Positions 11,865 to 52,148 of a DNA stretch of 64,000 bases are shown piece after piece. A program made the translations under genes and the position numbers. Source of the stretch: an uncultured Acidobacteriota bacterium (GTDB taxonomy: Bacteria > Acidobacteriota > Vicinamibacteria > Marinacidobacterales > SMYC01); the NCBI GenBank assembly GCA_963815675.1, contig CAWFHP010000006.1, positions 448,360-512,359 of the forward strand. Reading direction: 5' to 3'. Every line of letters begins with the position of its first letter. Position 1 is the stretch's first letter. A model generated the notes under the pieces. It saw only the letters and a list, made by a program, of their open reading frames with translations. It had not been told where the DNA came from and did not search any database.

Positions 11865-11915
11865 GCGATTCTCCAACTCGAGCCTCCACCGCCTTGATTC
11901 CGCGTTTCGCTGCCG

Positions 11916-33848: not shown

Positions 33849-34571
33849 GTGAAAGACATCGAATCGTTCGACCTCGTGCCGGGGCGAACCCTGGCGCGCA
33901 AGTACGAGATCGTTTCCCGCCTCGGCGGCGGGTGGGAAGGCGAGGTGTACCGCATTCGGGAGAAGAGGACGGGGATCGAGCGCGCCGCGAAGCTCTTCTT
34001 TCCCCAGCGCAACCTCCGGAACAAGGCGGCGAAATTCTACGCCCGCAAGCTCCACAAGCTCCGGGACTGTCCCATCGTCATCCACTACCACACCGAGGAG
34101 ACCGTTCTCCTCCGCAGAATGCCGATCACGGTGCTCGTTTCGGAGTACGTGGAGGGGGAGCTTCTCGACGACTTCCTCGCGCGGCAACCGGGCGGAAGAC
34201 TCCATCCGTTCCAGGCGGTTCACCTGCTCTACGCACTCGTCAAGGGCGTCGAGTGTATCCATCGCCTTCGCGAGTACCACGGCGATCTCCATCCGGGAAA
34301 CGTGATCGTCGAGCGATACGGCCTCCGCTTCGATCTCAAGATTCTGGACTTCTTTCACTGGGAATCCGCCCCCAAACGAGAAGGACTTCAGGACGACATC
34401 GTTTTTCTCATCCGGATCTTCTATGACGCACTCGGGGGCGCGCGCTTCTACACGCGCCAGCCCCGACAAGTGAAACAGATTTGCTGCGGTCTCAAGCGCT
34501 CACTGATTCTCCGGCGCTTTCCCAGCGTGACTCAGCTGATGCAGCACCTGGAACTGCTGCGATGGGATTGA
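33849..34571 (+). CDS. Small atypical protein kinase (PKL fold; Kdo/RIO/eukaryotic-like catalytic loop HGDLHPGNVIV)
   Basis: 240 aa with a lysine in the ERAAK motif, catalytic YHGDLHPGNVIV and DFF (DFG-like). Confidence 0.65.
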   Translation: MKDIESFDLVPGRTLARKYEIVSRLGGGWEGEVYRIREKRTGIERAAKLFFPQRNLRNKAAKFYARKLHKLRDCPIVIHYHTEETVLLRRMPITVLVSEYVEGELLDDFLARQPGGRLHPFQAVHLLYALVKGVECIHRLREYHGDLHPGNVIVERYGLRFDLKILDFFHWESAPKREGLQDDIVFLIRIFYDALGGARFYTRQPRQVKQICCGLKRSLILRRFPSVTQLMQHLELLRWD

Positions 34572-35461
34572 GGGCGAAGTCCGGGAAGCCCGAGGAGCTC
34601 GATTCCGGCGCATTCCGCCTCTTCGTGGAGCAGGAGCTTCTCGACTCCGCACGATACTTCGTCGGCAACGGCGAGGTGGCGGTCTATTCCCGGCGCAGCC
34701 CGTCAGGAGGATCTCCCAACGAGGATGCGGCGATCCTCGTTTCCACCGGAGATGAAGGGGCAGTGCTCGCGGTGGCGGACGGCCTCGGCGGCGCGCCGGC
34801 GGGGGACAAGGCGTCGTCCATCGCGGTTGCCTGTCTCTCCGAAGCGGTCCTCGCCGCCTCACGAGACGCCCGAGAAATCCGGGCGGGCATCCTCGACGGG
34901 TTCGACCGCGCGAACGCCGAGGTGCACGCGCTCGGTGTCGGCGCCGGCACGACCCTGACCGTCGCGGAGGTGAACGGCTCCTCGGTGCGCGCGTATCACG
35001 TGGGCGATTCGTTTTTTCTCGTGACCGGGAATCGAGGCAGAGTCAAGGCGCAGACAATCTCTCATTCACCCGTGGGATACGGCATCGAGTCGGGGCTACT
35101 CGACCCGGAAGGAGCGATGCACCATGTCGAGCGCCATTTCGTGAGCAACGTGATCGGAAGCTCCGACATGCACATCGAGGTGGGCTCGCCGCTCGCGCTC
35201 GGACCGCGCGACACAATCGTCATCGGAAGCGACGGCCTTTCCGACAATCTTCACACCGAGGAGATCGTCGACTGCGTGCGGAAGGGCCCCCTCGCGCGTG
35301 CATGCCGCGAGCTCGGCCGCCGGGCCGGCGAACGGATGGAAGGCGGCACGGGCGAGACGCCTTCGAAACCCGACGACTTGACGTTCCTCGTCTACCGCCG
35401 CCGCCGCTCCCCTTCGACGCGCCGCCGAAACGACGCGGGATCGATGGCGGGAAAACGATAG
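34562..35461 (+). CDS. PP2C-family Ser/Thr phosphatase
   Basis: Metal-binding motifs AVADGLGG, HVGDS, GSDGLSD and a C-terminal DDLT. Overlaps the kinase gene by 10 nt. Confidence 0.8.
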   Translation: MGLRAKSGKPEELDSGAFRLFVEQELLDSARYFVGNGEVAVYSRRSPSGGSPNEDAAILVSTGDEGAVLAVADGLGGAPAGDKASSIAVACLSEAVLAASRDAREIRAGILDGFDRANAEVHALGVGAGTTLTVAEVNGSSVRAYHVGDSFFLVTGNRGRVKAQTISHSPVGYGIESGLLDPEGAMHHVERHFVSNVIGSSDMHIEVGSPLALGPRDTIVIGSDGLSDNLHTEEIVDCVRKGPLARACRELGRRAGERMEGGTGETPSKPDDLTFLVYRRRRSPSTRRRNDAGSMAGKR

Positions 35462-35917
35462 AGCTCGCCTTCGATCGCGTCGAAGAGGCGAAGGGCTCGT
35501 TCGGGCTCGAATCCACCTCTCCTCCACCATCTTCCTCACATCGGCGAGATCCTTCGCATGGCCGCGCTGGAGCTTCGAGAGCGCCTGGGCATAGAAGTCG
35601 TAGTGATAGAAGGAAACTTTCCCCTCGCGGACGATGAACCTGCTGCGGTCCCTCCATCCGGGGAGCTCGGGAATGAAGTCCGCGGGCGAGGCGAGCTCGA
35701 CGTTCACCGCGAGCTCTTCTTTCAGGCGCGGGATGGCCCGATAGAGAACGTCATTTTCAGGAACCATCTGGATGTCGAGGCCGATGGTGCTGGGGCGCCA
35801 GCCGAAGAGAACCGCGGTGACGCCACCGGTGAAGTAGACACGGGTTTCGACCTGGGCTTCGGCTCCGAGAGCCCGGATGAACTCGCGTACCCGCGGCTCG
35901 TCTACAGGCCTACTCAT
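35096..35917 (-). CDS. Putative nucleotidyltransferase-fold protein (real product probably ~150 aa; the ORF runs on into the convergent phosphatase gene)
   Basis: The N-terminal 150 aa look real and carry a minimal NTase motif (YFTGGVTAVLFGWRPSTIGLDIQ). The distal Arg-rich part overlapping 35096..35461 is probably not coding. Confidence 0.4.
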   Translation of the reverse strand: MSRPVDEPRVREFIRALGAEAQVETRVYFTGGVTAVLFGWRPSTIGLDIQMVPENDVLYRAIPRLKEELAVNVELASPADFIPELPGWRDRSRFIVREGKVSFYHYDFYAQALSKLQRGHAKDLADVRKMVEERWIRARTSPSPLRRDRRRALSFSRHRSRVVSAARRRGAAAAVDEERQVVGFRRRLARAAFHPFAGPAAELAACTREGALPHAVDDLLGVKIVGKAVASDDDCVARSERERRAHLDVHVGASDHVAHEMALDMVHRSFRVE

Positions 35918-36186
35918 TCGGCCGCGTCCTCGAAACTGACGAGACGGCGAATGAGAGCGTTATAGCGGGAGTGAGCCGGGTCCTCGTCTTCGGCCGCGAG
36001 AAGCTCGTAAAGGCGCCGCTCCGGGTCCGGGTAGGTATTGTCGGGCACGTCGACACCCGCGGCTCGCAGGCGGGAAGCGCCGATGGAGACGAGAAGCGCT
36101 TCCTCGGTCTCCTCGCTCCCTTGGAGGTCGCGAAGGCCCTTCTCGACGATGTCGCCCCGGAAGCGCCTCGTAGCCCATCGGCTCAT
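35914..36186 (-). CDS. Small hypothetical protein (90 aa), translationally coupled to the NTase-like gene
   Basis: 4-nt overlap with the downstream gene. No motif recognised. Confidence 0.4.
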   Translation of the reverse strand: MSRWATRRFRGDIVEKGLRDLQGSEETEEALLVSIGASRLRAAGVDVPDNTYPDPERRLYELLAAEDEDPAHSRYNALIRRLVSFEDAAE

Positions 36187-36242
36187 ACTAGCCCGGCGCT
36201 CCGGAATCGATATTCGAACGTCTATACTGGGCGGGATAAACG

Positions 36243-36878
36243 ATGCGAGAACCCAGGATCGTTTCGGTGAACGTGGGCACGCCCCGTGCGGTCGACTACC
36301 GCGGGAGGCACGTGACGAGCTCGATCTGGAAATTACCGGTGTCGGGGCCGGTCGCGTTTGTGGGAGTCAACCTCGAGGGAGACAATCAAGCCGATCGCAC
36401 CGTCCACGGAGGCCCCGACAAAGCCGTCTACGCCTATGCCCTCGAAGACATCCGCTTCTGGGAAGACGAGCTTGGACGCGCGCTCGAGCCGGGAACGTTC
36501 GGCGAGAACTTGACGACATCGGGAATCGACTGGTCGCGTGCTCTCATCGGACAGCGCTTGCGAGTGGGAACCGGTACGTTCGAAGTCTCGCAGCCGAGGG
36601 TGCCCTGCTGGAAGCTCGGTATGAAGATGGAAGATCCGGCGTTTCCCAAGCGCTTCACCCACGCGCAGCGCCCGGGCGCTTACCTGCGCATCATCGAGGA
36701 AGGGTCTCTCGCCGCAGAGGACGCGCTCGGAGCACTCGAGCCCCCGCGGCACGGCGTCAGTGTCGGCGACGTATTTCGCATCTTCAGCCGCGACCGGGGC
36801 GAGGCCGAGCGACTGCTCTCGGTGCCGGAGCTTTCCCAGGACTGGAAGGAATGGGCGCGCGGGCAGATCGCGCGCTAG
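36243..36878 (+). CDS. MOSC-domain protein (YiiM-like)
   Basis: Intact 211-aa ORF with the MOSC beta-barrel and a conserved cysteine (PRVPCWKL). Confidence 0.8.
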   Translation: MREPRIVSVNVGTPRAVDYRGRHVTSSIWKLPVSGPVAFVGVNLEGDNQADRTVHGGPDKAVYAYALEDIRFWEDELGRALEPGTFGENLTTSGIDWSRALIGQRLRVGTGTFEVSQPRVPCWKLGMKMEDPAFPKRFTHAQRPGAYLRIIEEGSLAAEDALGALEPPRHGVSVGDVFRIFSRDRGEAERLLSVPELSQDWKEWARGQIAR

Positions 36879-37039
36879 CCCCGACTCCAGCAGGTCCCGG
36901 CGCCATCCAAAGAGCTCCGGACATTGTCCTATAACAATCTGGCGCGGTAGGTCACGCACGGCGGCCCGCTCCTGAAGGGGACGTCTCTTTCGCTTCCACT
37001 CCGGACAAGTTGTAGTATCTGAGTGGTTTCCGCGCCCGA

Positions 37040-37450
37040 TGTGCCGACTCGCGGCTTTCGAAGAGAGTCCATTGACCATCCGCCGGCTTGTCGCAGGTAT
37101 CGGCTGGCTCGCCGTGGCTCTGCTCGGGGCCTTCGCCTTCGCCTTCGCCTTCGCCTTCGGCTCCATCGCACTCCGGCGAGGCGAGACAATCTCGTTCTTT
37201 GTGGCTCTTGACCGAGAGGCGCAGACGCCGGTTACCGTTTCTACGCCTTTTTCATCGCTCGAAGAATCTTCGGCCTCGACAATCGACGCGCGACTCCCGC
37301 CGCGCGGCTTTCCAAACGGACGCGATTACGTCCCCACCAATCGCTGGGTCCTCTTCGGAGACCACTTCGCCGCCATTGCCGGGGCCGGCCCCCTCGTCGG
37401 ACCGACCTTCGCCGCCCAGTTCGGATACTTGCTGGGAACAATCTTGGCGG
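37040..37450 (+). pseudogene. cstA (carbon starvation protein A) 5' fragment, degraded
   Basis: [44 protein letters not shown] matches the CstA N-terminus. Upstream frames carry [17 protein letters not shown] after an in-frame stop. The body of the gene is absent, and a (GCCTTC)5 repeat lies inside the remnant. Confidence 0.6.
37129..37158. repeat. (GCCTTC)5 perfect hexamer tandem repeat inside the cstA remnant
   Basis: Read directly. Encodes (AF)5. Confidence 0.9.
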
Positions 37451-37459
37451 CGGCGGCGC

Positions 37460-38192
37460 GGGAGTGGTACGTCGTCCTTGCGGGAAGAAAGCGCGCCTCC
37501 GCAACCGCCTCGGCAACGGCCGTCTTGCCAACGCCAGGCTCGCCTACCAGGATCGGATTGTTCTTGGAGCGGCGCAGCAGAATTCGGATGACGCGGGAGA
37601 CTTCCGGGTCGCGACCGATGACCGGGTCCAGACGTCCACGGGCGGCGTCCACGGTCAGGTCGCGCCCGAACCGCTTCAGGTTCGGACACCGGCGCTCGAG
37701 CGGGGAAGTCACAGACCTCTCAGCGACGTCCGCGAGAAGGACTCGGTTCCTGCTAATCCCGCGGGAGCGGAGCAGCTCGCCGCAAAGACAGTCGCTCTCG
37801 AGCACGGCCACGAACAAGTGAGTCGTAGCGAGGAACCGCGACGATTCGGCATCAGCAGCACGTGCGGCCCGTTGGAAAAGGTCGAGGACTCCGGAACCGA
37901 TCCGGGTCTCCGGGCTCGGCCGCGCCGGAATCTTTTCCAACCGGCTCTCGAGAAAGCTCGCGAGCGAAGCGACGGAGCTTCCCAGGCGCACGAGCACGCG
38001 AGAAACGATACCGTTTTGCTGCTGGCAGAGGGCGAGAAGCAGGTGATCCTCCTCAACGGTACCGTGTCCCCGCCGCACTGCGAGCGCCTGCGCGATCGAG
38101 AGCGCTTCCCGGCAGGGAGCGGTGAATCGGCTGAAGTCTATGAAATCCTGTCCTTTGGAAGTGCGGCTCGTGTCATCGCTCATCTTCGTCAT
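37460..38192 (-). pseudogene. clpB/clpC-like chaperone 5' fragment (two Clp_N repeats and the start of AAA-1, then lost)
   Basis: Clp N-domains followed by [44 protein letters not shown], after which homology stops. The fragment abuts the cstA fragment in convergent orientation. Confidence 0.6.
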
Positions 38193-38405
38193 CCTCCCGC
38201 CCCGGTTTTGTAAAGACACACGACACCCGGCGCCCATGGAAGGGCGTTCTCGCCAGCCGTCTTGTGCCTTTGATCGTTAATGCGGAAACGCGAAGCCGAT
38301 CGGCTCAAAAAAAGTATCGCGGTGAGATTTCATTGCGGAAACTGGTCGTAATCGTGGTATCAACATAGGAGGGCCTCCCCAAGGCTTCTCCGAGCGAGTG
38401 GGGTC

Positions 38406-38945
38406 GTGACGCTCGAGCCGAAAGAAGAAACACCGAAGGAACTCGACGAGGTGATGCCCCTCGTCTACCGAGAGCTCCGGCGACTCGCGGCCCGCTACCT
38501 GCGCTCGGAGCGGCCAGACCACACGCTCCAACCTACGGCGCTCGTCAACGAAGCGTACCTCTATCTCGCGGATCAGCAGGGCGTCGTTTGGCAGAACCGA
38601 GCCCACTTCATCGCCATCGCCGCCAACACCATGCGCCGCGTGCTGGTGGACCATGCCCGCGAACGGGGTGCCCTGAAACGGGGAGGGGACCGCCGGCAGG
38701 TCACTCTGTATTCCTGGATTCGGGTTGACGATCGGGACCTCGACATCCTCGCTCTAGACGAGGCTCTTACCAAGCTCGGAGTCTTCAATCCCGCCGGCTG
38801 CCGGGTAGTGGAGCTTCGGTATTTCGGGGGTCTCACCATCGACGAGACCGCTTCCCTCATGGGCTCGTCTCCCGCGACCGTCAAGCGCCAGTGGGCGGTG
38901 GTCAAAGCCTGGCTCTATCGCGAGCTGCAATCCACCGCGAGGTGA
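38406..38945 (+). CDS. ECF sigma factor of the kinase-associated subfamily
   Basis: 179 aa with sigma regions 2 and 4 (RYFGGLTIDETASLMGSSPATVKRQW). Its stop overlaps the kinase start. Confidence 0.8.
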   Translation: MTLEPKEETPKELDEVMPLVYRELRRLAARYLRSERPDHTLQPTALVNEAYLYLADQQGVVWQNRAHFIAIAANTMRRVLVDHARERGALKRGGDRRQVTLYSWIRVDDRDLDILALDEALTKLGVFNPAGCRVVELRYFGGLTIDETASLMGSSPATVKRQWAVVKAWLYRELQSTAR

Positions 38946-40243
38946 TGAGTCCTGAGCGCTGGCAGGAGGTCCAAGAGGTCTTTCGTGCCGCCCTGGTCCA
39001 CGCTCCCAACGCGCGAGAGCCCTTTCTCGAGGATCGGTGCGGCGACGATTCAGATTTGAGGCGGGAGGTCACATCGCTCCTTGCGTCCCACGAACAGGCC
39101 GGTAGCTTTCTCGACGCGCCCGCCATCGCGGTCGCCGCTGCGGAGGTCCGCACCTTCCTCCCCGATCAGATCGTCGCCGAACGATTCCGCATCGTGAGGT
39201 TTCTGGCGGAAGGAGGGATGGGAGAAGTGTACGAGGCATTCGACACCATGCAGAACGAGAGCGTCGCCCTCAAAACCATCCGGCAGACGATTCTGGATGA
39301 CGAAGAGGCCGAGCGTCGCCTGACGCGGGAGAGCGAGCTCGCGCGCAAGGTCAGACATCCTAACGTCTGTCGAACCTATGATCTCTTCCATCACACGGTG
39401 TACTCCGGTAACTTCGAAGCGCGGATCAAGTTCCTCACGATGGAGCTCCTCGGCGGCGAGAGTTTGGCCCTGCGGCTTCGGCGAGAGGGTCCGCTGACGG
39501 TTGCCCGTGCAGTTCCTATCGCGCGACAGATCGTCGAGGCGATGCGGGCGGCCCACCGCGCCGGTGTCGTCCACCGCGATCTCAAACCGGATAACATCGT
39601 CCTCGTTTCGGGCAAACGCGGCCTGCGGCCGATCGTCACCGATTTTGGTCTCGCCCGCGACAACAAAGTCTTCGAAGGGATCCCGAAGAGCGCGAGGGGA
39701 GACCTTCTCTGGATTCTCCACGGACTCCAGGCAGACGGTCTCGACTCGCGGGGAGCGCTTGCCCGTCTCGCGAAGCGGGCACGCCGACAGATGGTCGAGC
39801 TCGGCCTCGTTTCTGATGACGGCACGGCCTTGACCGAGCTCGGCCGCATCATGGGAACCCCCGCCTACATGTCGCCGGAGCAAGCGCGCGGTGACCGGGC
39901 CGACAAACGCTCCGACATCTGGTCATTCGGCGTCGTCTTCTATCAAATGCTGACCGGAAAGCTTCCCTATCGCCCCGAGAGCTCCCTTCGCAGCATCTTT
40001 CTCCGGCTCACGGGGCGGAAGCGTTCACCGGCGGCACTGGGACGAGGAGTTCCGTCTTCGTTGAGAAAGGTGATCTTTCGCTGCCTGGAGATCAACCGGC
40101 TCGACCGCTACCAGACGGCCGCCGAGTTGGTATCGGATCTCGACGACGCTGTTTCCAAGCGAGACGTCTCCCGGCTGTGGCCGTACCTCATTGCCGTCGT
40201 CCTCCTACTGCTCGCGGCGGCGCTCGCTCTCACGGTTCTCTGA
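38945..40243 (+). CDS. Ser/Thr protein kinase with a conserved N-terminal ~80-aa domain and a C-terminal TM anchor
   Basis: The N-terminus MSPERWQEVQEVF...DSDLRREVTSLLASHEQA is the motif common to ECF-paired STKs. The kinase has VALK, HRDLKPDN, DFG and APE motifs, and the C-terminus is hydrophobic (LIAVVLLLLAAALALTVL). Confidence 0.85.
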   Translation: MSPERWQEVQEVFRAALVHAPNAREPFLEDRCGDDSDLRREVTSLLASHEQAGSFLDAPAIAVAAAEVRTFLPDQIVAERFRIVRFLAEGGMGEVYEAFDTMQNESVALKTIRQTILDDEEAERRLTRESELARKVRHPNVCRTYDLFHHTVYSGNFEARIKFLTMELLGGESLALRLRREGPLTVARAVPIARQIVEAMRAAHRAGVVHRDLKPDNIVLVSGKRGLRPIVTDFGLARDNKVFEGIPKSARGDLLWILHGLQADGLDSRGALARLAKRARRQMVELGLVSDDGTALTELGRIMGTPAYMSPEQARGDRADKRSDIWSFGVVFYQMLTGKLPYRPESSLRSIFLRLTGRKRSPAALGRGVPSSLRKVIFRCLEINRLDRYQTAAELVSDLDDAVSKRDVSRLWPYLIAVVLLLLAAALALTVL

Positions 40244-40280
40244 AGATCCAGTCGTGGCGAGCAGAGCTCGCGCGCTCGCT

Positions 40281-41729
40281 CTAGACGCCCCGGTAGGGAG
40301 CGAAGGCCGATTCCGGGGGTGGCTTGGTGAGAAGGCTCACCACGAAAAAGAGCGCTCCAGAGACGAGGAGACCGGGGAGCACCGGATCGAGCGCTTTCGA
40401 GCCCCATCCCTTCCAGAGAAAACACGCGGCGAGACCGCCGATCATGGCGGAGAGCGCTCCCGCCTCGGTGGCACGTGACCAGTAGACGCCGCCGACGACG
40501 GGAACGAAGAAGCTCGAGGCCATGAGGGCGGTGTAAAGGAGAACGATGAACTGCACCAGTTCACCCTTGCTCACACCGCTGAAGACGAGAAGGAGCGGGA
40601 CCACGCCGACGACGAGGAGGCCCACGCGGCCCACGCGGAGCTTGGCTTTTTCGCTCGCCGCTGGATGGATGCTCCCGAACAGGTCGTGAGCCAGTGCCGA
40701 GCCGGCGACGAGCATCAACGAGTCGACGGTGGACATGATGGCGGACGTGATGGCGGCGAGGAGCAGCGCCCCGAGGACCGGGGGCAAAACGGCGCGCGCG
40801 ACCATGGGCATCGCCAGGTCTCCGGTCGGAAGAGAGGGGAAGAGCACGATGCTCGCGAGCGCGATCACGAAGATGACGAGGTTCAGGCCGGTCGCGGCGA
40901 CGAAGGCGAAGAGAATGCCGCGCCGAACGGTCCGCATGTCCCGCATCGCGTAGAGACGGACGAGCTTTTCCGGGGTCGCGACCGTTCCCAGGGTGAAGGC
41001 GAGCCCCATCGTCACCAGGCTTCCGGGAGGGAAGGTCTCCCATCCGAACGTCTCGGGCTTTACGACGGTGACGTAGTGAAACAGCGCGCCGATCCCGCCG
41101 ACCTGCCGGATGGCGAGAGGGAGCGCCGCCAGAACTCCCGCGCCCATGATGACGAGCTGGAGAAAGTCCGTGTAGACGACGGCGAGCATGCCTCCGATCG
41201 CGGTATAGGCGAGAAGAACGAGGGTGAAGGCTACCATCGCCCATTCGGCTGGGATTCCGAAGACGATGTTTCCGATCAGTCCGCCGGCAACGATCTGCGC
41301 CTGTACGTAGACGACGATGGCGACGAGGATGACGACGGCGGAAAGGCGCCGCACGACGACGCTGTCGTAGCGGGACTCGAGGAACGCGGGGAGGGTGAAT
41401 TCCTTCGTTCGGGTGAAGCGAGGAGCGAGCACGGCCGCCATGAACCAGTAGGCGGCGGGAATGGAAAGGACGATCCAGGCGAAGGACCAGCCGGAGGTAT
41501 AGATGACCCCGATGGTTCCGATGAAGGTGCCGGCGCTCGCGTGAGTCGCCGCGAGCGTCGCTCCTCCGAGTAGCCAGCCGAGCTTACCCCCTGCGATCCA
41601 GTAGTCGGACTCGTTTCGAGTCAGCTTCAGACAATAGAACCCGATGGCGAAAACGACGACGAAGTAGAGGAGGAAGAGGACGGCCTGGACGCTCACGGCC
41701 GGGCCCGCCGCTCGCAGCGCATCATCCAC
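40281..41729 (-). CDS. Sodium:solute symporter (SSS family)
   Basis: Intact 482-aa ORF with 13 TM helices and SSS signature regions. Confidence 0.8.
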   Translation of the reverse strand: MDDALRAAGPAVSVQAVLFLLYFVVVFAIGFYCLKLTRNESDYWIAGGKLGWLLGGATLAATHASAGTFIGTIGVIYTSGWSFAWIVLSIPAAYWFMAAVLAPRFTRTKEFTLPAFLESRYDSVVVRRLSAVVILVAIVVYVQAQIVAGGLIGNIVFGIPAEWAMVAFTLVLLAYTAIGGMLAVVYTDFLQLVIMGAGVLAALPLAIRQVGGIGALFHYVTVVKPETFGWETFPPGSLVTMGLAFTLGTVATPEKLVRLYAMRDMRTVRRGILFAFVAATGLNLVIFVIALASIVLFPSLPTGDLAMPMVARAVLPPVLGALLLAAITSAIMSTVDSLMLVAGSALAHDLFGSIHPAASEKAKLRVGRVGLLVVGVVPLLLVFSGVSKGELVQFIVLLYTALMASSFFVPVVGGVYWSRATEAGALSAMIGGLAACFLWKGWGSKALDPVLPGLLVSGALFFVVSLLTKPPPESAFAPYRGV

Positions 41730-42432: not shown

Positions 42433-42462
42433 ACTCCTACTCCTACTCCTACTCCTACTCCC
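42433..42462. repeat. (ACTCCT)4-ACTCCC hexamer tandem repeat, equivalent to (GGAGTA)n on the coding strand, spanning the dipeptidase stop and the RBS region of the downstream gene
   Basis: Read directly. On the minus strand it gives tgg gag tag gag tag gag tag gag tag gag tcg gga gc ATG. Confidence 0.9.
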
Positions 42463-43678
42463 AGACTTCCTTCAAGAGCCGGAGAGAGTTCCCCCCGACG
42501 ACTTTGGCGATGTCCGCGTCGGAGTATCGGTGGGCTACGAGCCAGCGAACGATGTTGTCGGCCGCCTCCGTCGGGTTCTCGATTCCTTTTACGTACTCGA
42601 CCTCTTCGAAGGCGGGCGCGCCGCTCGCCTCTCTTTGATGGGATTCCTGGATCGAAAGGCTCGACTTGTAGACGTGATGAAGCCCGACGTGATTGCCGTA
42701 GAGAGTGTCGGGCCCGAACGAGACGTGATCGATACCCACCAATCCCTTCACGTACTCGAAGTGCTCCATGTACGACTCGACGTCGTGCTTCGGGTGCGCC
42801 GCCGTCAATGTGGTATGAGGCGCCGCTTCGATCCCGATGATCCCGCCCTTGTCGGCGCATGCTTTCAGGACGTCGTCGGGCGCCATGCGGCTGGTGTTCC
42901 AGAGGGCACGGGCACCGATGTGGCTCAGCACGATGGGCTTCCGGCTCTTCTCGATGACGTCGAGGGTCGTCTGATCTCCGCAGTGGGAGCAATCGATGAG
43001 CATTCCCACCTGGTTCATCCGCTCGACGACACGGCTTCCGAAGGCGGTGAGTCCGCCGTCTCGGGTCTCCTTCAGCCCCGAGCCCAGTGAATTGGATTCG
43101 CTGTACGTGATGCCCATGGCTCGAACGCCGAACCCATAGAGGATCTCGACTCGATCGAGCTCGTTCTCGATGGGTGCCGCACCCTCCACCGACGCGACCC
43201 ATGCGATGCGGCCTTCCCGATGGGCGCGAAGGATGTCGTCCACCGTCAACGCATGGATGAGGAAGTCCTGATGACCGAGATCGCAGAGCCGCATGCCGAG
43301 ATCGTGGAGCACCTCCGTCCACTTCCAACCGCGCTTCGACTCGATCTGGCAGATCCCGTCCATCATGTTGTCGAAGATACAGTCCCAGTGACAGCGGGCG
43401 AGTCCTTCGAAGGCGGTCGCCATGCGCCCCTCGCGGACGTAGTCGGGTGTGTCGGTGATGGGCTCGGGGAAGAGCCCGAGGTGATCGTGAAGCGAGATGA
43501 TCACGTTCTCCCGCAAGATCCGCTGAACCCGTTCTTCTTCCTCGTCGGTGACCTTGACCGTGAAGGGGGGAACGCGGTCGACCTGGGCGGTGAGCGTAAA
43601 CTGCCGGTAGTCCCGGCCGGCGCGAAGATACCGAAACGATTCGTAGCCCGAGTACTTCTTGTCGGTTCCCATTGACAT
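42455..43678 (-). CDS. Membrane dipeptidase (peptidase M19 family)
   Basis: Intact 407-aa ORF. Renal-dipeptidase family motifs (HDHLG, LSHIGARAL, IGIDHVSFGPD). Confidence 0.8.
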   Translation of the reverse strand: MSMGTDKKYSGYESFRYLRAGRDYRQFTLTAQVDRVPPFTVKVTDEEEERVQRILRENVIISLHDHLGLFPEPITDTPDYVREGRMATAFEGLARCHWDCIFDNMMDGICQIESKRGWKWTEVLHDLGMRLCDLGHQDFLIHALTVDDILRAHREGRIAWVASVEGAAPIENELDRVEILYGFGVRAMGITYSESNSLGSGLKETRDGGLTAFGSRVVERMNQVGMLIDCSHCGDQTTLDVIEKSRKPIVLSHIGARALWNTSRMAPDDVLKACADKGGIIGIEAAPHTTLTAAHPKHDVESYMEHFEYVKGLVGIDHVSFGPDTLYGNHVGLHHVYKSSLSIQESHQREASGAPAFEEVEYVKGIENPTEAADNIVRWLVAHRYSDADIAKVVGGNSLRLLKEVWE

Positions 43679-43812
43679 CTCCTTTGATTAATGCTCACCT
43701 CGTGCGTCTACTCAGTGCCGCGGGGCCCCACCCCCGCGGCCCGTCGCTCCGCGCTTCGTGCCGCGCTCAGGCCGAGGGCTCCGCTCGCCCTGAGTATCCG
43801 TTCGACATTTGC

Positions 43813-44730
43813 CTACTTTCCGCTGATCGTCGTGTCGGCCATGCCTTCGATGAAGTTGGCGAGCGCGGAGTGATCTCGATCGCCCTTGCCGTTCACCACC
43901 AACGCCTCGACCATCTGCTGGATCAACGCCGTCACCGGGAGGGGTACGCCGAGGTCCTTTCCCGTGAGAAGCGCATTCGCCAGATCCTTGCGGTGGAGTC
44001 GAATGCGGAAGCCGGGCGCGAAGTTCCCTTCGATCATCATCGGCGCCTTGGCGTTCAGGACGTTGCTGCCCGCGAGACCGCCGCGGATGGCTTCGAATAC
44101 GACGTTCGGGTCCAGGCCCGCCTTCTTTCCCAGCACCAGAGCCTCGCCCACCGCCTCGATATTCGCGGCGACGATGACCTGGTTGCAGAGCTTCACGGTA
44201 TTGCCCGCGCCGTAGCCGCCGCAAAGGACGAAGCTCTTTCCCAGACGCTCGAAGAGGGGCCGAGCGCGCTCGAAAACGTCTCGCTTGCCGCCCACCATGA
44301 TGGCGAGCTGACCCGCGATCGCGCCGGGCTCGCCGCCGCTCACGGGCGCGTCGAGAAACTCCACCCCTTTCGCTTCGCAGCCGGCGGCGATCTTCTGCGA
44401 TACCGCGGGAGCGATCGAGCTCATGTCGATGACGACGGCACCGCGCGCCGCTCCTTCCAGGACGCCGCCCGGCCCGAGAATCACCGCCTCCGAGTCGGGA
44501 GAATCGGGAAGCATGGTGAGGACGCCGTCGCGACCCTCGGCACATTCCCGTGGAGTCTCAGCGCGCTCGGCGCCCTCCGCAACGAGCTCGTCGACCGGCG
44601 GCCGGGACCGGCTCGCCACCTTCAAGGCGAATCCGGCTTTGAGGAGATTTCGGGCCATGGGCTTTCCCATGATGCCCAATCCCACGAACCCGACCTTGCG
44701 GATCCCCTGGACGCTCTGCGTTTCCTTCAC
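43813..44730 (-). CDS. NAD(P)-dependent 3-hydroxyisobutyrate / 2-hydroxy-3-oxopropionate reductase family oxidoreductase
   Basis: GFVGLGIMG Rossmann motif and a 6-PGDH-like C-terminal domain. 305 aa. Confidence 0.8.
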   Translation of the reverse strand: MKETQSVQGIRKVGFVGLGIMGKPMARNLLKAGFALKVASRSRPPVDELVAEGAERAETPRECAEGRDGVLTMLPDSPDSEAVILGPGGVLEGAARGAVVIDMSSIAPAVSQKIAAGCEAKGVEFLDAPVSGGEPGAIAGQLAIMVGGKRDVFERARPLFERLGKSFVLCGGYGAGNTVKLCNQVIVAANIEAVGEALVLGKKAGLDPNVVFEAIRGGLAGSNVLNAKAPMMIEGNFAPGFRIRLHRKDLANALLTGKDLGVPLPVTALIQQMVEALVVNGKGDRDHSALANFIEGMADTTISGK

Positions 44731-44824
44731 CCCGGCCTCCTTCGACGGCGACGACTTCGGCGCGCCGAGGGGAATTATATGGTCGGCAGGAGAGGCGGCA
44801 AAGGCCGTCGTATCTTACAATGAG

Positions 44825-45235
44825 ATGATGAGCACGAAGGTGTCGGCGATCATGACGCGGGTGGTCGAGAGCCTGCGGCCGGGGGAGTCCTTGTCGCGCG
44901 CCGACGCTCTCATTCGCGAAAAGCGATACCGGCACTTTCCCGTGGTCGAGAAGGGACGGCTCGTGGGAATCCTCTCGGAACGCGACGTCCTTCGCGCGGC
45001 GCTGTCGACCGCTTCCGGACCTTCGCACCAGGCACAGACGGACTTCCTCGCCACCGTCAAAGTCGAGGAAGTCATGAGCCGCGACGTCGTGACGATTACG
45101 CCCGACGAAGACGTGAAAGACGCCGCCCTCACCATGCTTTCGGGCAGTATCGGATGCCTGCCGGTCGTGGAGCGGGAAGCGGTGGTGGGACTCGTCACCG
45201 AGAGCGACATCCTGCGGTTCGTCGCCGACGGCTGA
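44825..45235 (+). CDS. CBS-domain pair protein
   Basis: Two CBS motifs (VVESLRPGESLSRADALIREKRYRHFPVV; VVTITPDEDVKDAALTMLSGSIGCLPVV). Confidence 0.75.
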   Translation: MMSTKVSAIMTRVVESLRPGESLSRADALIREKRYRHFPVVEKGRLVGILSERDVLRAALSTASGPSHQAQTDFLATVKVEEVMSRDVVTITPDEDVKDAALTMLSGSIGCLPVVEREAVVGLVTESDILRFVADG

Positions 45236-45281
45236 GACCGAGCTCGAGATTCCCGGTCCTATCCCGTCCGGCGTCCGGCTT

Positions 45282-45476
45282 TCAGCTCTTGGACGGCTTG
45301 CCGGTACTTCGCGCGATGAGGCCCGCGACGAAGCCCACGAGCCCGGTGTTGACGGCGAGGATCGGCACCGCCCCCGGGATGGCGACGCCGCCGCCGCCGT
45401 AGAGAAAGCAAATGGCCGCGGTGAGCCCCGCAGTCGCCGCGCCACACAGAACCGCCGTGATGAGTGGTGAGTTCAT
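45282..45476 (-). CDS. GlsB/YeaQ/YmgE-family small stress-response membrane protein
   Basis: 64 aa with two TM helices and a glycine-rich loop (FLYGGGGVAIPGAVPILAVN). Confidence 0.65.
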   Translation of the reverse strand: MNSPLITAVLCGAATAGLTAAICFLYGGGGVAIPGAVPILAVNTGLVGFVAGLIARSTGKPSKS

Positions 45477-45511
45477 CTGTCTTTCGTCATCGCTGTGGTC
45501 GAAACCAAAAA

Positions 45512-45588
45512 TGGCGCGCCCGGTAGGGCTCGAACCTACGACCTACAGATTCGAAGTCTGGCGCTCTATCCAACTGAGCTACGGGCGC
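45512..45588 (-). tRNA. tRNA-Arg (anticodon TCG)
   Basis: Manual fold. Acceptor GCGCCCG/CGGGCGC, anticodon loop CTTCGAA, T-loop GGTTCGAGCCC, CCA. Confidence 0.7.
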
Positions 45589-45642
45589 GATCGAACCAAC
45601 AAACTATAAAGGAGCATGGAGCTGGAGACAAGGAGGCGACGT

Positions 45643-45718
45643 CTGGGGTGGGTGATGGGGCTCGAACCCACAACCACTGGAGCCACAGTCCAGTGCTCTA
45701 CCATTGAGCTACACCCAC
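45643..45718 (-). tRNA. tRNA-His (anticodon GTG) with an encoded G-1
   Basis: Anticodon loop CTGTGGC. Extra 5' G pairs with C73. CCA end present. Confidence 0.75.
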
Positions 45719-45731
45719 CGCAAGATCCCAT

Positions 45732-45808
45732 TTGGTACGCCAGGGAGGACTCGAACCCCCGACATGCGGCTTAGAAGGCCGCCGCTCTATCCACCTGAGC
45801 TACTGGCG
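45732..45808 (-). tRNA. tRNA-Arg (anticodon TCT)
   Basis: Anticodon stem GCGGC/GCCGC, loop CTTCTAA, T-loop GGTTCGAGTCC, CCA. Confidence 0.75.
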
Positions 45809-45843
45809 CACGAGCTTTCGCTCTGTTTCCTTCCAGTCCCCGT

Positions 45844-45922
<79 letters not shown>

Positions 45923-45962
45923 CGTGGAAACCAGCTATTATAGGGTTCTTCGAGCGCAGGCG

Positions 45963-46567
45963 TCAACGAAGGCGCGCGGTCTCTTCCAAATAGGCTCTGA
46001 GGGCCTTCATCGCCTTTCCCCGATGGCTGACGCGGTTCTTCGCGTCGGGGTCGATTTCGGCGAGCCTTCGGGCGAGGGGAGGATAGAAGAAGATGGGGTC
46101 ATATCCGAAGCCCCCTTCACCTCCGGGCTCGAGGGCGATGATCCCTTCGCAGGTGGCTCTATGCTCGAAGAGGATCCTGCCGCCAACAGCGAGCGCGATG
46201 GCACTCACGTAGCGGGCCGCCCTCTCTTCCCAGGGTACTCCCGCGAGAAGCTCGAGCAGCCGGGCGTTCTTCACCTCGTACGAAGTCTCCGCGCCCAGCC
46301 ATCGGGACGACTCGACGCCGGGAGCACCTTTTAGAGCGTCGACGACGAGACCGGCGTCCTCGGCGACCGCGGAAAGGCCGGTGACGCGTTCGTAGTAGAT
46401 GGCCTTCACGGAAGCGTTGTCTCGGAAGGTCGGACCCGGCTCGGCGGGAGGCTCGAGAGGTTGGGACCACTCATCGAGGCCGACGAGCTCCACGCCGCCG
46501 AGGCCGGCGAGAGCAACTCGTTGCTCGCGAAGTTTTCCTCGACTGGTCGTAGCGAGAAGAAGCTTCA
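45963..46567 (-). CDS. rdgB: RdgB/HAM1-family non-canonical purine NTP pyrophosphatase (dITP/XTPase)
   Basis: LLLATTSRGKLRE, GFGYDPIFF and similar motifs. Probable TTG start at 46567, overlapping the rph stop by 3 nt. Confidence 0.75.
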
Positions 46568-47305
46568 AGGCTTCGGTGAATCGGAGAGCGGGCCGAGGAT
46601 CTCGCGCTGTATCGCGATCAGTTGCTCGATGCCGCCGGTCGCGAGCTCCAGCATCTCGAGAAGCGATTGTTGCGAGAACGGGTTGGATTCCGCCGTTCCC
46701 TGGACTTCGACCAGATCTCCCGAGCCCGTCATCACGACGTTCATGTCGACCTCGGCCTTCGAGTCCTCTTGATAGTTCAAGTCCAGTAACAGCTCGTCGC
46801 GGACGATGCCGACGCTCGTCGCCGCCACGTGATCGCGAATGGGGATGGTCCCGATGATGCCCGCGGTCTTGGCCGCCCGGAGCGCGAGCGCGAGCGCGAC
46901 GAAGGCCCCGGAAATGGAGGCGGTGCGGGTGCCCCCGTCGGCCTGCAGCACGTCGCAGTCGATCCACACCGTACGCTCCCCGAGCTTCTTCAGATCGACG
47001 ACGGCACGAAGCGAGCGTCCGATGAGACGTTGGATCTCCTGGGTCCGGCCGGAGACCCGCCCGCGGGTGGATTCCCTGGGGATCCGTTCCTTGGAGGAGC
47101 GGGGAAGCATTCCGTATTCCGCCGTGACCCAGCCCGAGCCGCCGCCTTTCAAGAACGGCGGCACTTTTTCCTCGAGGGTGGCGGCACAGACCACTTTGGT
47201 CTCGCCTACCTGGATGAGAGCCGAGCCCTCGGCATGTCTCAGAAAGTGCGGGGTGATTGTGACGGGGCGTGGCTCGTCGCGGCTTCGGCCGTCAACTCGT
47301 TTCAT
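46565..47305 (-). CDS. rph: Ribonuclease PH
   Basis: [43 protein letters not shown]... matches RNase PH. Sits in the conserved rph-rdgB arrangement. Confidence 0.85.
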
Positions 47306-47972
47306 TCTTGATCTCGGTTCGTTCGGAAGGAGGCTGAAGGTAATCCGGTGCCCGGCCGTAAGGAATGGTGAGATCCAGGTGGCCGGCGATGGTCTGAATC
47401 TCACGACCCTCGACGAGGATTTTCGCCGTCTTGATCGCGGGAAAGTTGGCGACGAGGGTCTGCGTCAAACTGTAGACGGTGAGCTCTTCCGCTGAAGATC
47501 CCCCGGGGTGATTCGTGATCAGCTCTTGCGAGAGGTCCACGTACGCGATGCCCTGAGAGGTGATGAAGAGCTCGCGAAGCGTCACCCCGGAGGGAATCGC
47601 GGAAGAGCGTCGAAGGAGAAGCTCCACCACCGCTTTCGCCTGTTCCTGAACGGATGCGGCGAGGGGGATCTCCTGAGTCTCGGTGGCGAGCTCTCGGCCC
47701 GAAGGACCGACCACGTAGAGCGTGACCTGGATGCGACGAGCATCCGAGTCGATCGCGTCTCCCGTCGATTCTGCGGGTCCCGTCGTTTCCGTTGTCTGCG
47801 CGGTCGCAACCGTCCCCTCGGGTGTTTGTCGTTGGTTTGCTTCGGACGGTGAAAAAAGCTCTTCACTCGTCTGGGGAACCGGCTGCCGAAGGATCCAGAT
47901 GGTGCCCCAGACCGCGACTCCAATGAGCGCGAGCGCGATTCCCGCAGCGACGAGGACGCTCCGGGTTCTCAC
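47292..47972 (-). CDS. GerMN-domain lipoprotein/membrane protein
   Basis: N-terminal TM helix ([17 protein letters not shown]), a Thr/Glu-rich linker and a GerMN-like C-terminus. GTG start at 47972 overlaps the amidase stop (GTGA). Confidence 0.55.
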
Positions 47973-49696
47973 TTCCGACCCTGGGACGATCGATCCGCAG
48001 CGCTGGGCTCGTACTCGTACACGTCTTTGAAGCGCAGGACGCCGCGGTAGAGTGCTTCGGCCAATCGGTCCTGGTAGGCAGCGGAGCCGAGAAGCTCTTC
48101 CTCCTGCGGGTTCGAGATGAAGCCGACTTCGACGAGCACCGCCGGCATCGTGGCCCCCTTGAGAACGCGAAAGGTGTTCTGCTTGATCCCGCGATCGACC
48201 TTCTCCGCGGAACCGGTGGCGCCGAGCAGCTCCTGCTGGAAGATTTCCGCCAGCTTCGAGGATTGGCTCAGGTGCGATGCCTGGGCCATGTCCCACAGGA
48301 TGAAGTCGAGCTCGCCGTCTCCGCCGGAGCCCCGGGTGGCCGACGTTTGATTGTGGGCGGCCGAAACCTGACCGGCGCTGGACTCCGAACCGGAGTACGA
48401 GAGGAAGTAGACCGAGGAGCCTCGTGCGTCGCGGATCGGCGACGCGTCGGCGTGAATGCTGATGAAGAGGTCCGCCTTGTTGCTGTTCGCGAGCGCCGCG
48501 CGGTCATCGAGCCCGAGGTTGCGGTCGCCGTCTCGCGTGAGAACGACGCGAAGACCGAGACGATCCTGCAGCAGCGTACGAAGCCTCCGCGCGATCGAGA
48601 GGGCGACGTCTTTCTCGAAGAGACCTCCCTTGCCCTCGGCTCCCGTCTCCGCTCCACCGTGTCCCGGGTCGAGGCAGACGACACGAAGCTCGGCGGGGGC
48701 CGAGCGCGCATGCTCCATGATGTCGGCCGCGGATGTCGGCGTGCCGAAGTCGGAAGGAAGCTCGATGGTGGTCACGTTGTCCGGCGTCGCCGCCTCGCCT
48801 TCGGGCGCCGGCGTTGGCGTTGGCGGCGTCGCGCCCGTTTCGCGCTCCTCGATGGGACGCAGATCCTCGTGGATCGTCTCGACGTTCCCCGGTTGCGAGC
48901 CTCCCGCCGCCGTGGGAACCCGACTCCGTAGGAGATCGAGCACGACACCGCGCTCCGGATAGTCGCGCTCGAAGGCCTTCAACGTTCCGAATCGGGGCCC
49001 GAGATCGACGATGAGCTCGTAGTCTCCCGTGTGGCGCTGAAGCCGTATGCGCTGGACCACCTCGTCGAGAATCTCCTCGTCCTTGAAGTCCGTCCTCAAG
49101 TAGGGCGTGTGGATCGACAGGCGGATCTGGTTGTCCGCCCGGGACATCTCGATCGGGGCCTGGCCGGTCGTGCTGACTTCCACCCGGGTATAGGTGGGGT
49201 CGCGCGTCGTCTTGACCTCGAGGGTCGGAAAGGCGTTGCCCACCAGGAGCATTCGCTCGGACTCTCGATAGGCGACCGCCTCGCTCGAAAGCGTGGGGAA
49301 CACCTTGGTGAGAAAATCCATGGGAACGAACCAATTCCCGGATACGAGACGCACCGGTGATTGGAGCAGAACGAGCTTTCCGCCCACCGAAACGAAGTTG
49401 CGGCCGTCGGTGAGGCGCGCCTGCTTGCCGTTCGCGGAAAGCGTCACGCTCTGCTCGGACGCGGGGCGCACGGTCGCCGAAGCGAGCTTGGCGAGAGCTT
49501 CCAGAGGAAGCATCTCGACTCCCGAGAACTCGCTCAACGGTATGGTGTCGAGGCTGCCCTCCGAGACGACGGTAATCTCGTGTTGGTTCGGCTGTGCCCA
49601 GAGCGCAGTCGCGGCTGTGATCGGGATCGTGATCGTGGTGGCGGCAAGGACGGAAGCGACACCCCACGACGCGAGGTTGAGACGGTTCGTCGCCAT
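47969..49696 (-). CDS. N-acetylmuramoyl-L-alanine amidase (AmiC-like) with N-terminal AMIN domains
   Basis: ATG at 49696 (MATNRLNLAS...). The Amidase_3 catalytic domain reads VVCLDPGHGGAETGAEG...ADLFISIHADAS...PAVLVEVGFISNPQEE. The upstream 1,220-aa ORF extension is antisense of the ino1 region and not coding. Confidence 0.8.
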   Translation of the reverse strand: MATNRLNLASWGVASVLAATTITIPITAATALWAQPNQHEITVVSEGSLDTIPLSEFSGVEMLPLEALAKLASATVRPASEQSVTLSANGKQARLTDGRNFVSVGGKLVLLQSPVRLVSGNWFVPMDFLTKVFPTLSSEAVAYRESERMLLVGNAFPTLEVKTTRDPTYTRVEVSTTGQAPIEMSRADNQIRLSIHTPYLRTDFKDEEILDEVVQRIRLQRHTGDYELIVDLGPRFGTLKAFERDYPERGVVLDLLRSRVPTAAGGSQPGNVETIHEDLRPIEERETGATPPTPTPAPEGEAATPDNVTTIELPSDFGTPTSAADIMEHARSAPAELRVVCLDPGHGGAETGAEGKGGLFEKDVALSIARRLRTLLQDRLGLRVVLTRDGDRNLGLDDRAALANSNKADLFISIHADASPIRDARGSSVYFLSYSGSESSAGQVSAAHNQTSATRGSGGDGELDFILWDMAQASHLSQSSKLAEIFQQELLGATGSAEKVDRGIKQNTFRVLKGATMPAVLVEVGFISNPQEEELLGSAAYQDRLAEALYRGVLRFKDVYEYEPSAADRSSQGRK

Positions 49697-49797
49697 GAGC
49701 TCTATTGTGCTGCTGGGTACAAGATTAGCACAGAAACGACGCGCCAATCCCTGTCCCCGATTTCCGAACGACGAGAGCGCGAGCGTGAGCCCGCGTT

Positions 49798-51156
49798 TTA
49801 TTCGGAAACGAGCTCCGCGCGCCTCGTCGGATCGTGCTCGAGCACGTACTCGCCGAGGTGGGTGATCTGCTCTTCGCCCATGAGATAGCGCAGCGTGTTC
49901 TTCAGCTTGGTGAGCTGGATGAACACGTCGTGCTCGGGGTAGAGACCCTCCGGAGTCATCGGGCTCTTGAAATAGAACGAGAGCCACTCCTGGATTCCCT
50001 TGAGCCCCGCCCGCTGCGCGAGGTCGAAGAACAGCGCCAGGTCGAGTACGAGCGGTGCGGCCAGGATCGAGTCGCGACAGAGGAAGTCGACCTTGATCTG
50101 CATCGGGTATCCGAGCCATCCGACGATGTCGATGTTGTCCCAGCCCTCTTTGTTGTCTCCCCGAGGCGGGTAATAGTGGATGCGGACCTTGTGGTAAAAG
50201 CTCCCGTAGAGGTCGGGGTAGAGATCCGGCTGTAGGATGTACTCCAGAACGGAGAGCTTGGACTCTTCTTTGGTCTTGAACGAGCCTGGATCGTCGAGGA
50301 CCTCGCCGTCCCGATTTCCCAGAATGTTCGAGGAGAACCAGCCCGAGAGCCCCAGCATCCGCGCCTTGAGACCGGGCGCGAGAATCGTTTTGAGGAGCGT
50401 TTGCCCCGTCTTGAAGTCCTTCCCGCCGATAGGAATGCCCCGATCGTAGGCGAGGTGCGTGAGGGCGGGAATATCCACCGTCAGGTTGGGAGCGCCGTTC
50501 GCGAAGGGGACCCCGCACTGGAGGGCGGCATAGGCGTAGATCATGCTGGGAGAAATGTCGGGAGAGCTCTCTTTGAGCCCCTTTTCGAAGCTGTCCAGGT
50601 CCTTGAGGACGGGGGTCCGCTCGAGGAAGGTCTCCGTGGAGGCGCACCAGACCATGACCGCGCGGCTCGCCCCGGTCTTTCGCTTGACCTCGCGAATGTC
50701 CTCCATGAGCTGCTCGGCGAGGTCCATCTTCGTCTTGCCCGTCTTGACGTGGGTACCGTTGAGCCTCTTCACGTAGTTCTGGTCGAAAACGGCTTTCATC
50801 GGCTTGACCGCTTCGAGGTCGGGGCGGAGCTCGTCCAACAGATGGCGCTCCAGCACTCCCGCGTTCCGGGCCGACTCGTAAGCGTCGTCCTCGAAGATGT
50901 CCCAGGCGGCAAACGAGAGGTCGGCGAGCTCCGCGAGGGGAACGAAGTCCTTGATCATCGGAGCTCGTTTCTCCGTGCGTTTTCCGAGGCGGATGGTCCC
51001 CATCTGGGTCAGCGAGCCAATGGGCTTCCCCAGGCCCTTTCGTACCGCTTCGACCCCGGCAATGAACGTGGTGCTCACGGCACCGAGTCCGGGCAAGAGG
51101 ACCGCGAGCCCACCTTCGGGCGCGCTCACTTCGAATCGCTTTTCCGTCGCCATCGC
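49798..51156 (-). CDS. ino1: myo-Inositol-1-phosphate synthase (archaeal/short bacterial type)
   Basis: Real start MATEKRFEVSAPEGG at 51156. MIPS core motifs are present (GGKDFKTGQT; NGAPNLTVDIPALTHLA). Confidence 0.8.
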   Translation of the reverse strand, partial: AMATEKRFEVSAPEGGLAVLLPGLGAVSTTFIAGVEAVRKGLGKPIGSLTQMGTIRLGKRTEKRAPMIKDFVPLAELADLSFAAWDIFEDDAYESARNAGVLERHLLDELRPDLEAVKPMKAVFDQNYVKRLNGTHVKTGKTKMDLAEQLMEDIREVKRKTGASRAVMVWCASTETFLERTPVLKDLDSFEKGLKESSPDISPSMIYAYAALQCGVPFANGAPNLTVDIPALTHLAYDRGIPIGGKDFKTGQTLLKTILAPGLKARMLGLSGWFSSNILGNRDGEVLDDPGSFKTKEESKLSVLEYILQPDLYPDLYGSFYHKVRIHYYPPRGDNKEGWDNIDIVGWLGYPMQIKVDFLCRDSILAAPLVLDLALFFDLAQRAGLKGIQEWLSFYFKSPMTPEGLYPEHDVFIQLTKLKNTLRYLMGEEQITHLGEYVLEHDPTRRAELVSE

Positions 51157-51295
51157 CACTCCTGGAGAAGAATCGTTTCTCCCGCAACGTGCGGAAGATG
51201 AAGAGGCAGATTTTGACGCAGCCGCCGACGAGACGCAAGGGACGCCCCGGCCGGGCCGCGGCAATGCTCCAGCGAGTCATGTATACTCCGTATTC

Positions 51296-52148
51296 ATGAA
51301 AATCTCGACCGATCGCTGCGTCGCATGCGGGAACTGCATTCCCGTCTGCCCGGTGGGGGCGATCGACATCGATCCCGGCATCCACCGCGCCGTGGTCGAT
51401 CAGGACCGCTGTGTCGAGTGCTTCACCTGCTTCCGCGGGCTCTCCACCGAGCATCTGAACCCCACAATCGTGCGAACCCTCCGAAAGGTGCTGGGCTGGG
51501 CGCGGGTACGATTCGACCCGGAGCCCGACGTCTGCCCCACCGCCGCCATCGAGCCTGCAAGAGCTCTCCTGGCCTCGCATCGTGCGCCGGGCGTTCAGCG
51601 ATCCGCTCGTGCCCCACGAGAGCACGGGCATTCACGGCCGGGGAACGGAAGAGGTCAAGACCAACGACGTTACCCATCGTGTCGGGGAGGGCGAAGCGGG
51701 CTTCACCGTCGAGTTCGGCCGTCCCACGGTGTCCGCCCGTTTCCGGGACATTTCCGTCATGACCGAGGCCCTGGCGAAGCTGGGTGTGACGTTCGAGTCC
51801 AACAATCCCGTCACCCACCTCATGGTCGACCGCTCGACGGGAAAGATTCGTGAGGACATCCTCGACGAGCGCGTTCTCTCTGCCATCGTCGAGATCAAGA
51901 CGAGCCTCGACCGGGTTGCCGAGATCCTGCGGACGGTGACCGCGGTCTCGAAACGGCTCGATACCATCGTCTCCATCGGGGTCTCGACCCGCTGCAACGC
52001 CAATGGGAGGAGCGCCCTCGAGGACGTGCTGCGAGCCGAGGGATTCCCCTTCTGGAGAGGCAAGACCAACCTCGGGCTCGGGCGTCGTCCCGCGCCTTCC
52101 GATGCCGCCCGCGCCGGAGCGGAAGCGGTCACGGCTCCTTCGCGCTGA
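51296..52148 (+). CDS. 4Fe-4S dicluster ferredoxin-domain protein with a C-terminal domain of unknown function; apparent frame change near 51570
   Basis: Two Cys clusters (CVACGNCIPVCP; CVECFTCF). The C-terminal ~180 aa continue in ORF 51582..52148. Confidence 0.5.

Follow-up and report, generated by a model that had tools for sequence, protein, structure and literature searches.

How did fragments of two large, conserved genes come to lie end to end, each cut off within its own coding sequence? The question is raised by a locus in the 64-kb window (the whole stretch of DNA that was analyzed; G+C = 64%), in which pieces of a cstA gene and of a ClpB/ClpC-like chaperone gene are found between a MOSC/YiiM-like gene and an ECF sigma factor/Ser/Thr kinase gene pair, with both flanks intact. 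A preliminary description of this DNA had noted two stubs that run into each other and had left the choice between a deletion or rearrangement scar and an assembly chimera. From comparisons with related contigs we infer, with a probability of about 85%, that the locus is a genuine genomic scar of two deletions, carried by an uncultured acidobacterium of the class Vicinamibacteria. The main comparators were the contigs L003 and L004 (JGI sample 3300081965), which have 91–96% DNA identity to the window. The nearest relatives with a name belong to Candidatus Marinacidobacterales (class Vicinamibacteria, phylum Acidobacteriota). The features of the locus are as follows.

36243–36878, plus strand: left neighbor, an intact MOSC/YiiM-like gene (Pfam MOSC E=6e-34), upstream of cstA as in L004.
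37039/37073–37444, plus strand: 5' remnant of cstA, codons 1–120 of a 680-codon gene (Pfam CstA E=5e-20).
37129–37159, plus strand: GCCTTC tandem repeat inside the cstA remnant (TRF: period 6, 5.2 copies, 100% matches).
37195–37235, plus strand: scrambled patch in the cstA remnant, with +1, -5, and -3 nt indels and 12 mismatches in 40 nt relative to L004.
37444/37445 (ambiguous within 37442–37447), no strand: junction D1; the L004 match stops at 37444 and the L003 match starts at 37442.
37445–37497, plus strand: 3'-end remnant of cstA, 53 nt, codons 647–664 (blastn against L003; tblastn).
37497, no strand: junction D2, placed by blastn coordinates and the breakpoint sequences; one base is common to both sides (1-nt microhomology).
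37498–38192, minus strand: 5' remnant of a ClpB/ClpC-like class-I Hsp100 gene, codons 1–232 (Pfam Clp_N and AAA).
37326–38183, minus strand: public ORF P0001, 285 aa (100% identical; on a 514,346-nt contig in NCBI and ENA).
38406–40243, plus strand: right neighbors, intact ECF sigma factor and Ser/Thr kinase genes (Pfam; NCBIfam TIGR02999; synteny).

A synteny comparison, one of the checks proposed in the preliminary description, was run with L003 and L004 and reveals the intact layout together with the neighbors found in the window. L004 carries, in order, PP2C, two small genes, a kinase-PD40 gene, MOSC, and the first 292 codons of cstA; it matches the window at 33984–36192 (96.2% identity) and 36244–37444 (90.1%). 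L003 carries a symporter fragment, the kinase, and the ECF sigma factor, then divergently the full ClpC-like gene, and finally, in convergent orientation, an incomplete gene at the end of the contig, which corresponds to the C-terminus of CstA (NCBIfam NF011590, profile positions 577–663 of 701). In blastn, L003 1–3187 matches window 40673 to 37497 (93.6%), after which L003 5094–5149 matches window 37497 to 37442 (92.9%). The encoded proteins are grouped accordingly: P0001 shares a 90%-identity cluster with the 843-aa P0241 of L003, and the MOSC protein of the window clusters with P0244 of L004. As cstA and the 843-aa ClpC-like gene are natural convergent neighbors in L003, separated by 19 nt, the locus can be explained without the rearrangement that had been considered, which is not supported.

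L004 ends and L003 begins inside cstA, and none of the close relatives' contigs spans the entire MOSC-cstA-clpC region; the cstA pieces of the two contigs presumably belong to one gene. A bridge is provided by L085 (an 82-kb contig with 80–87% identity), in which cstA is followed directly by Peptidase_M19, NAD_binding_2, Ham1, RNase PH, and amidase genes. This contig is collinear with window 37058–37442 and 42455–52565, indicating that the two sides of the window belong together. In the more distant L005, L006, and L007 (~60% amino acid identity), no cstA was found within 10 kb, and the sigma/kinase/ClpC-like module is present in L005 and L006 only. The ECF sigma/kinase pair is divergent from the ClpC-like gene in the window, and likewise in L003, L001/L005, and L006.

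Both genes had been said to lose homology at the same point. The alignments instead resolve two junctions 53 nt apart, with the N-terminal part of cstA ending at 37444 and the clpC homology at 37497. At D1, codon 647 of cstA follows codon 120 in frame, such that ~526 codons (~1578 nt) are gone; the two sides have at most CTGG in common, and this only with one extra T. Full-length CstA of the close relatives (P0246 and P0247) comprises 680 aa, with the breakpoint motifs at residues 114–121 and 647–664, and the 18-residue product of 37445–37497 equals residues 647–664 of this protein. At D2, exactly 1906 nt (L003 3188–5093) are missing, namely cstA codons 665–680 with the stop codon, the 19-nt spacer, and clpC codons 233–843 with the stop codon. 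Both junctions are near-blunt, with a microhomology of 1–4 nt. The D2 gap is exact and D1 is fixed within 6 nt, while intact orthologues and collinear flanks are found in L003/L004 at 90–96% identity; these are the marks by which a deletion scar is recognized. The view that point indels could not have produced such truncations therefore stands, as does that of a deletion scar, the change relative to the relatives being two large deletions.

Two other assignments of the stretch between the junctions were tried and rejected. The CstA alignment beyond 37447 was first taken as noise; it is real and represents the C-terminal tail rather than adjacent residues. ClpC homology continuing past Walker A in another frame was suspected from a shared GACGTACC, and the alignment to L003 identified the stretch as the cstA tail. 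When the window was searched by tblastn for the missing gene bodies, as had also been proposed, with the full ClpC-like protein and E. coli CstA as queries, no further part of either gene was found in the 64 kb. Overall, ~77% of cstA is gone, and what remains is codons 1–120 and 647–664, such that the earlier statement that only the first codons are left applies to the N-terminal part and overlooks the surviving tail.

The plus-strand cstA stub is confirmed by its Pfam match, with a length of 120 codons (126 when counting a repeat expansion) instead of the ~130 first estimated. The in-frame match to the Pfam CstA profile is limited to positions 38–94 of 560, which falls short of a whole-profile match to CstA (PF02554/NF011590). 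At the DNA level, the stub has 93% identity to L004 6207–6567 and is orthologous to the relatives' cstA. Its reading frame is broken by an indel at the start codon and further frameshifts, with two frame switches inside the remnant. Relative to L004, six indels (+T, +18, +1, -5, -3, and +1 nt) are found in 379 nt, and four to five of these are not multiples of three. The ATG of the relative's cstA corresponds to ~37072 in the window, where the inserted T converts ATG to TTG and joins an 11-codon upstream ORF (start at 37039) in frame to the cstA remnant. The (GCCTTC)5 repeat noted previously does lie inside the stub. It has grown from two copies in L004 to five in the window, and the 18-nt in-frame growth (an 18-nt gap in L004 at window 37129) adds AFAFAF to the first transmembrane helix; these six residues are missing in all eight CstA homologues aligned. 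The scrambled patch shifts the frame and costs ~8 residues, and the remaining +1 nt indel lies downstream of it. In addition, the first His of FGHHF is changed to Asp and the Pro of GYLPGT to Leu, both in columns that are invariant in the eight homologues.

The density of these lesions was compared with that of the surroundings. Six indels fall within the 379 nt of the cstA stub and four within ~5.9 kb of coding DNA on its flanks (Fisher p ~8e-6); only one of the latter is an uncompensated frameshift. An indel excess confined to the cstA stub, with clean neighboring genes, is evolutionary decay and not sequencing noise.

The minus-strand stub is in a different state. The ORF at 38237 to 37326 encodes Clp_N together with an AAA Walker A motif, in agreement with the ClpB/ClpC-like identity proposed earlier, and the homologous part spans 232 codons rather than ~240. 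It contains Clp_N (Pfam E=9e-11), the linker, and NBD1 to just past the Walker A motif GEPGVGKT, and thus has the Clp_N and NBD1 Walker A combination of class-I Clp/Hsp100 proteins. Alignments to solved ClpC/ClpB structures (PDB) end at query residues 229–231, and a tblastn search with the L001 orthologue matches the stub (38192 to 37497) with E=2.5e-66. The 3.2-kb match to L003 that includes the stub (window 37497–40673) has a mean DNA identity of 93.6%. There are no indels and no stop codons in the 232 codons, and dN/dS relative to L003 is 0.25, compared with 0.16–0.27 for the sigma factor, kinase, and MOSC genes. Lineage-polarized substitutions in the stub number 3 vs. 1, with 13 ambiguous, a count with too few informative sites. 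Given a clpC stub without decay, the case for D2 is carried by the junction and the synteny.

Regarding the proteins that these fragments could encode, the stub is without a complete NBD1 (Walker B and sensors), middle domain, NBD2, and D2-small domain, all of which are present in P0241. Lacking Walker B, the middle domain, and all of NBD2, its product is predicted to be unable to work, and the same prediction applies to the product of the cstA remnant, which would have no membrane domain without residues 121–646. In the public 285-aa P0001, the last 53 residues are a meaningless tail, antisense of the cstA remnants. A predicted ribosome-binding site, GGGAGG, precedes the ATG of the stub ORF. 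A family of short Clp N-terminal proteins was also considered; the search gave many proteins of 230–300 aa on long contigs, and these are frameshifted or partial ClpB fragments with unrelated tails.

Taken together, the ancestral layout would have been MOSC, cstA (680 codons), the 19-nt spacer, and the convergent ClpC-like gene (843 codons), followed by the ECF sigma factor and Ser/Thr kinase genes in the same orientation as cstA. D1 would have taken cstA codons 121–646, and D2 the last 16 cstA codons, the spacer, and clpC codons 233–843, leaving 53 nt of the cstA tail between them and a loss of ~3.5 kb overall. Because the joins have only 1–4 nt of microhomology, an illegitimate deletion, non-homologous or by replication slippage, is the likely mechanism. 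Neither an IS element nor a long repeat seems to be involved at D1 or D2, and repeat- or IS-mediated recombination at the junctions is unlikely. The cstA remnant would then have kept decaying through the start-codon indel, frameshifts, growth of the hexamer repeat, and the His-to-Asp and Pro-to-Leu changes at invariant sites. With no such damage in the clpC stub so far, the first lesion in cstA probably predates D2.

Alternatively, both junctions may have been produced by a single complex event, in which a replication fork switched template twice and copied 53 nt of the cstA tail between the jumps. The short distance between the breakpoints, their near-blunt ends with 1–4 nt of microhomology, and the original orientation of the retained 53-nt piece are all compatible with such an event, and the in-frame nature of D1 is uninformative as to whether one or two events occurred. 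However, the contrast between a heavily decayed cstA stub and a pristine clpC stub fits an earlier inactivation of cstA, which makes the single event the less likely explanation. No allele with D1 alone or D2 alone was found in the JGI metagenome collection.

It is quite unlikely that the scar is an assembly artifact, that is, a chimera of two loci or a skipped sequence in an organism with intact cstA and clpC. Such an artifact might be suspected from the metagenome-assembled source contig, from the undecayed clpC stub, and from the 27-mers across D1 and D2, neither of which had an exact match in the JGI metagenome collection. (The incomplete CstA proteins of L004 and L003 likewise had no exact match.) However, the two stubs are natural neighbors in the closely related L003, and both flanks are collinear with L003, L004, and L085, the last of which bridges cstA to the genes from 42455 onward. 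With only 1–4 nt in common at the junctions, there is no repeat for an assembler to collapse. Moreover, an artifact would have to account for a pair of junctions that enclose 53 nt of cstA in its original orientation, and for a secondary decay of cstA (six extra indels and damaged invariant residues) next to clean flanking genes. The chimera suspected in the preliminary description is thus not supported. Finally, it is very improbable that the truncated ORF of 285 aa has been retained as a functional, independent Clp N-domain protein, such as a decoy or adaptor, with expression from a promoter region common to the divergent ECF sigma/kinase operon. The ORF is open and preceded by GGGAGG, and its clpC part is indel-free with a dN/dS similar to those of the intact neighbors. 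However, a low dN/dS is also what a recent deletion would leave, and the cut inside NBD1 just after Walker A would yield half a domain that could not fold. Moreover, the tail of 53 residues derives from antisense cstA, the short ClpB N-terminal proteins in databases form no family, and the same paralogue is broken differently in relatives.

Under the two-deletion reading, both remnants appear to be ordinary deletional pseudogenes, a reading that calls for neither an assembly error nor a new system or new biology. Bacterial genomes reportedly have a bias towards deletion that leaves gene remnants, as Mira, Ochman and Moran are said to have described in 2001. As in bacterial deletional pseudogenes in general, the window has truncated remnants whose intact orthologues with equal flanks exist in a close relative, the junctions are blunt or have microhomology, and the cstA remnant has acquired secondary frameshifts. 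There is no difference in kind; particular to the window are a convergent pair that was hit twice and the 53-nt island of cstA tail left behind. The kind of event is already known, namely routine gene loss that resulted in a textbook pair of deletional pseudogenes.

With regard to the protein families, the 120 N-terminal and 18 C-terminal codons in the window are orthologous to CstA (PF02554; NF011590) of Vicinamibacteria relatives, and the relatives' CstA has 60% identity to E. coli CstA over residues 10–290. In contrast, the window copy, with ~77% missing, a broken frame, and changed invariant residues, is a remnant and not a transporter. Among the class-I Clp/Hsp100 proteins (ClpB, ClpC, ClpA, and ClpV), the Clp_N and NBD1 Walker A regions of the window copy align to ClpC/ClpB structures; both AAA modules are found in P0241 along with the D2-small domain, whereas the window copy ends at codon 232. 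Compared with canonical ClpB (TIGR03346), the intact P0241 scores 906.6 bits in two stretches, below the equivalog cut-off of 1232.1. P0241 is in fact below every NCBIfam equivalog cut-off and has a short middle region, which points to a divergent class-I Hsp100 paralogue, linked to the ECF sigma/kinase pair, rather than the housekeeping ClpB.

These results have consequences for annotation. The public 285-aa P0001 is a ClpC stub fused to antisense cstA and should be corrected, and a pseudogene label is also appropriate for the cstA remnant. This copy of CstA (a pyruvate/proton symporter according to NCBIfam NF011590) and this ClpC-like paralogue are lost in the organism, and the locus provides a clean, base-resolved case of near-blunt deletions in an uncultured acidobacterium.

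Of the six copies of the ClpC-like paralogue that were examined, four are broken, each in a different way, and the three besides that of the window come from Marinacidobacterales relatives. Apart from the truncation in the window, L005 has an in-frame TAG at codon 261 (L001/L005 10781–10783), a position with GAG in L007 and P0242; in P0242, the frame is shifted after residue ~278; and the copy in L007 (~9926–12286) is 5'-truncated, with the sigma/kinase neighbors lost. The gene is intact in L003 and L006. Some of the lesions in relatives could be sequencing errors. It is conceivable, albeit unlikely, that the paralogue is under recurrent selection for loss in Vicinamibacteria, or that the N-domain stub keeps a regulatory role; if either were true, the locus would represent a natural experiment on a stress-sigma-linked unfoldase.

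The gene that follows cstA also differs among the relatives. It is the ClpC-like gene in L003, Peptidase_M19 in L085, and a gene without similarity to ClpC or M19 in L086, indicating variable gene content on the 3' side of cstA (window 37498–~42300 vs. L085 12043–12323 and L086 5770–6552). The block of clpC, sigma factor, kinase, and sodium:solute symporter genes is missing from L085.

Several minor observations concern the DNA in and around the cstA remnant. In L004, an 11-codon ORF (MRRLAAFEGSP; 6176–6210), with its counterpart at 37039–37075 in the window, ends in an ATGA that overlaps the cstA start, and could be a putative leader peptide. The spacer between MOSC and cstA has 94% identity between the window and L004 and contains an inverted repeat, ATTGT-N6-ACAAT, at window 36923–36938; the site is identical in L004 and could be a putative regulator binding site that has outlived its gene. 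A search of window 36000–39000 against Rfam gave no match, and promoter and terminator scans of the locus gave only background-level signals. Within the scrambled patch, window 37215–37232 reads GCGCAGACGCCGG, which resembles the reverse complement of L004 CCGCCGTCTGCAC at 11 of 13 bases; the patch may be a micro-inversion with a small deletion, or the resemblance may be a chance match in G+C-rich DNA.

Upstream of MOSC, window 36192–36244 has 51 unrelated bases between the ATG of a small gene and the MOSC start, at the position where L004 (2212–5378) has 3.17 kb that includes a gene for an 879-aa Ser/Thr kinase with a Tricorn/PD40 beta-propeller. Either a deletion in the window or an insertion in L004 may explain this difference. 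The DNA identity between the window and L004 falls from 96% to ~91% across 36192–36244. Further upstream, a DUF6036-like nucleotidyltransferase gene (35096–35917, minus strand) has a 1-nt insertion at 35510 relative to L004, in which the product has 174 aa. The insertion replaces the C-terminus and extends the ORF to 273 aa, running into the antisense of the PP2C gene. Located less than 2 kb from the scar, the nucleotidyltransferase gene is probably a pseudogene as well.
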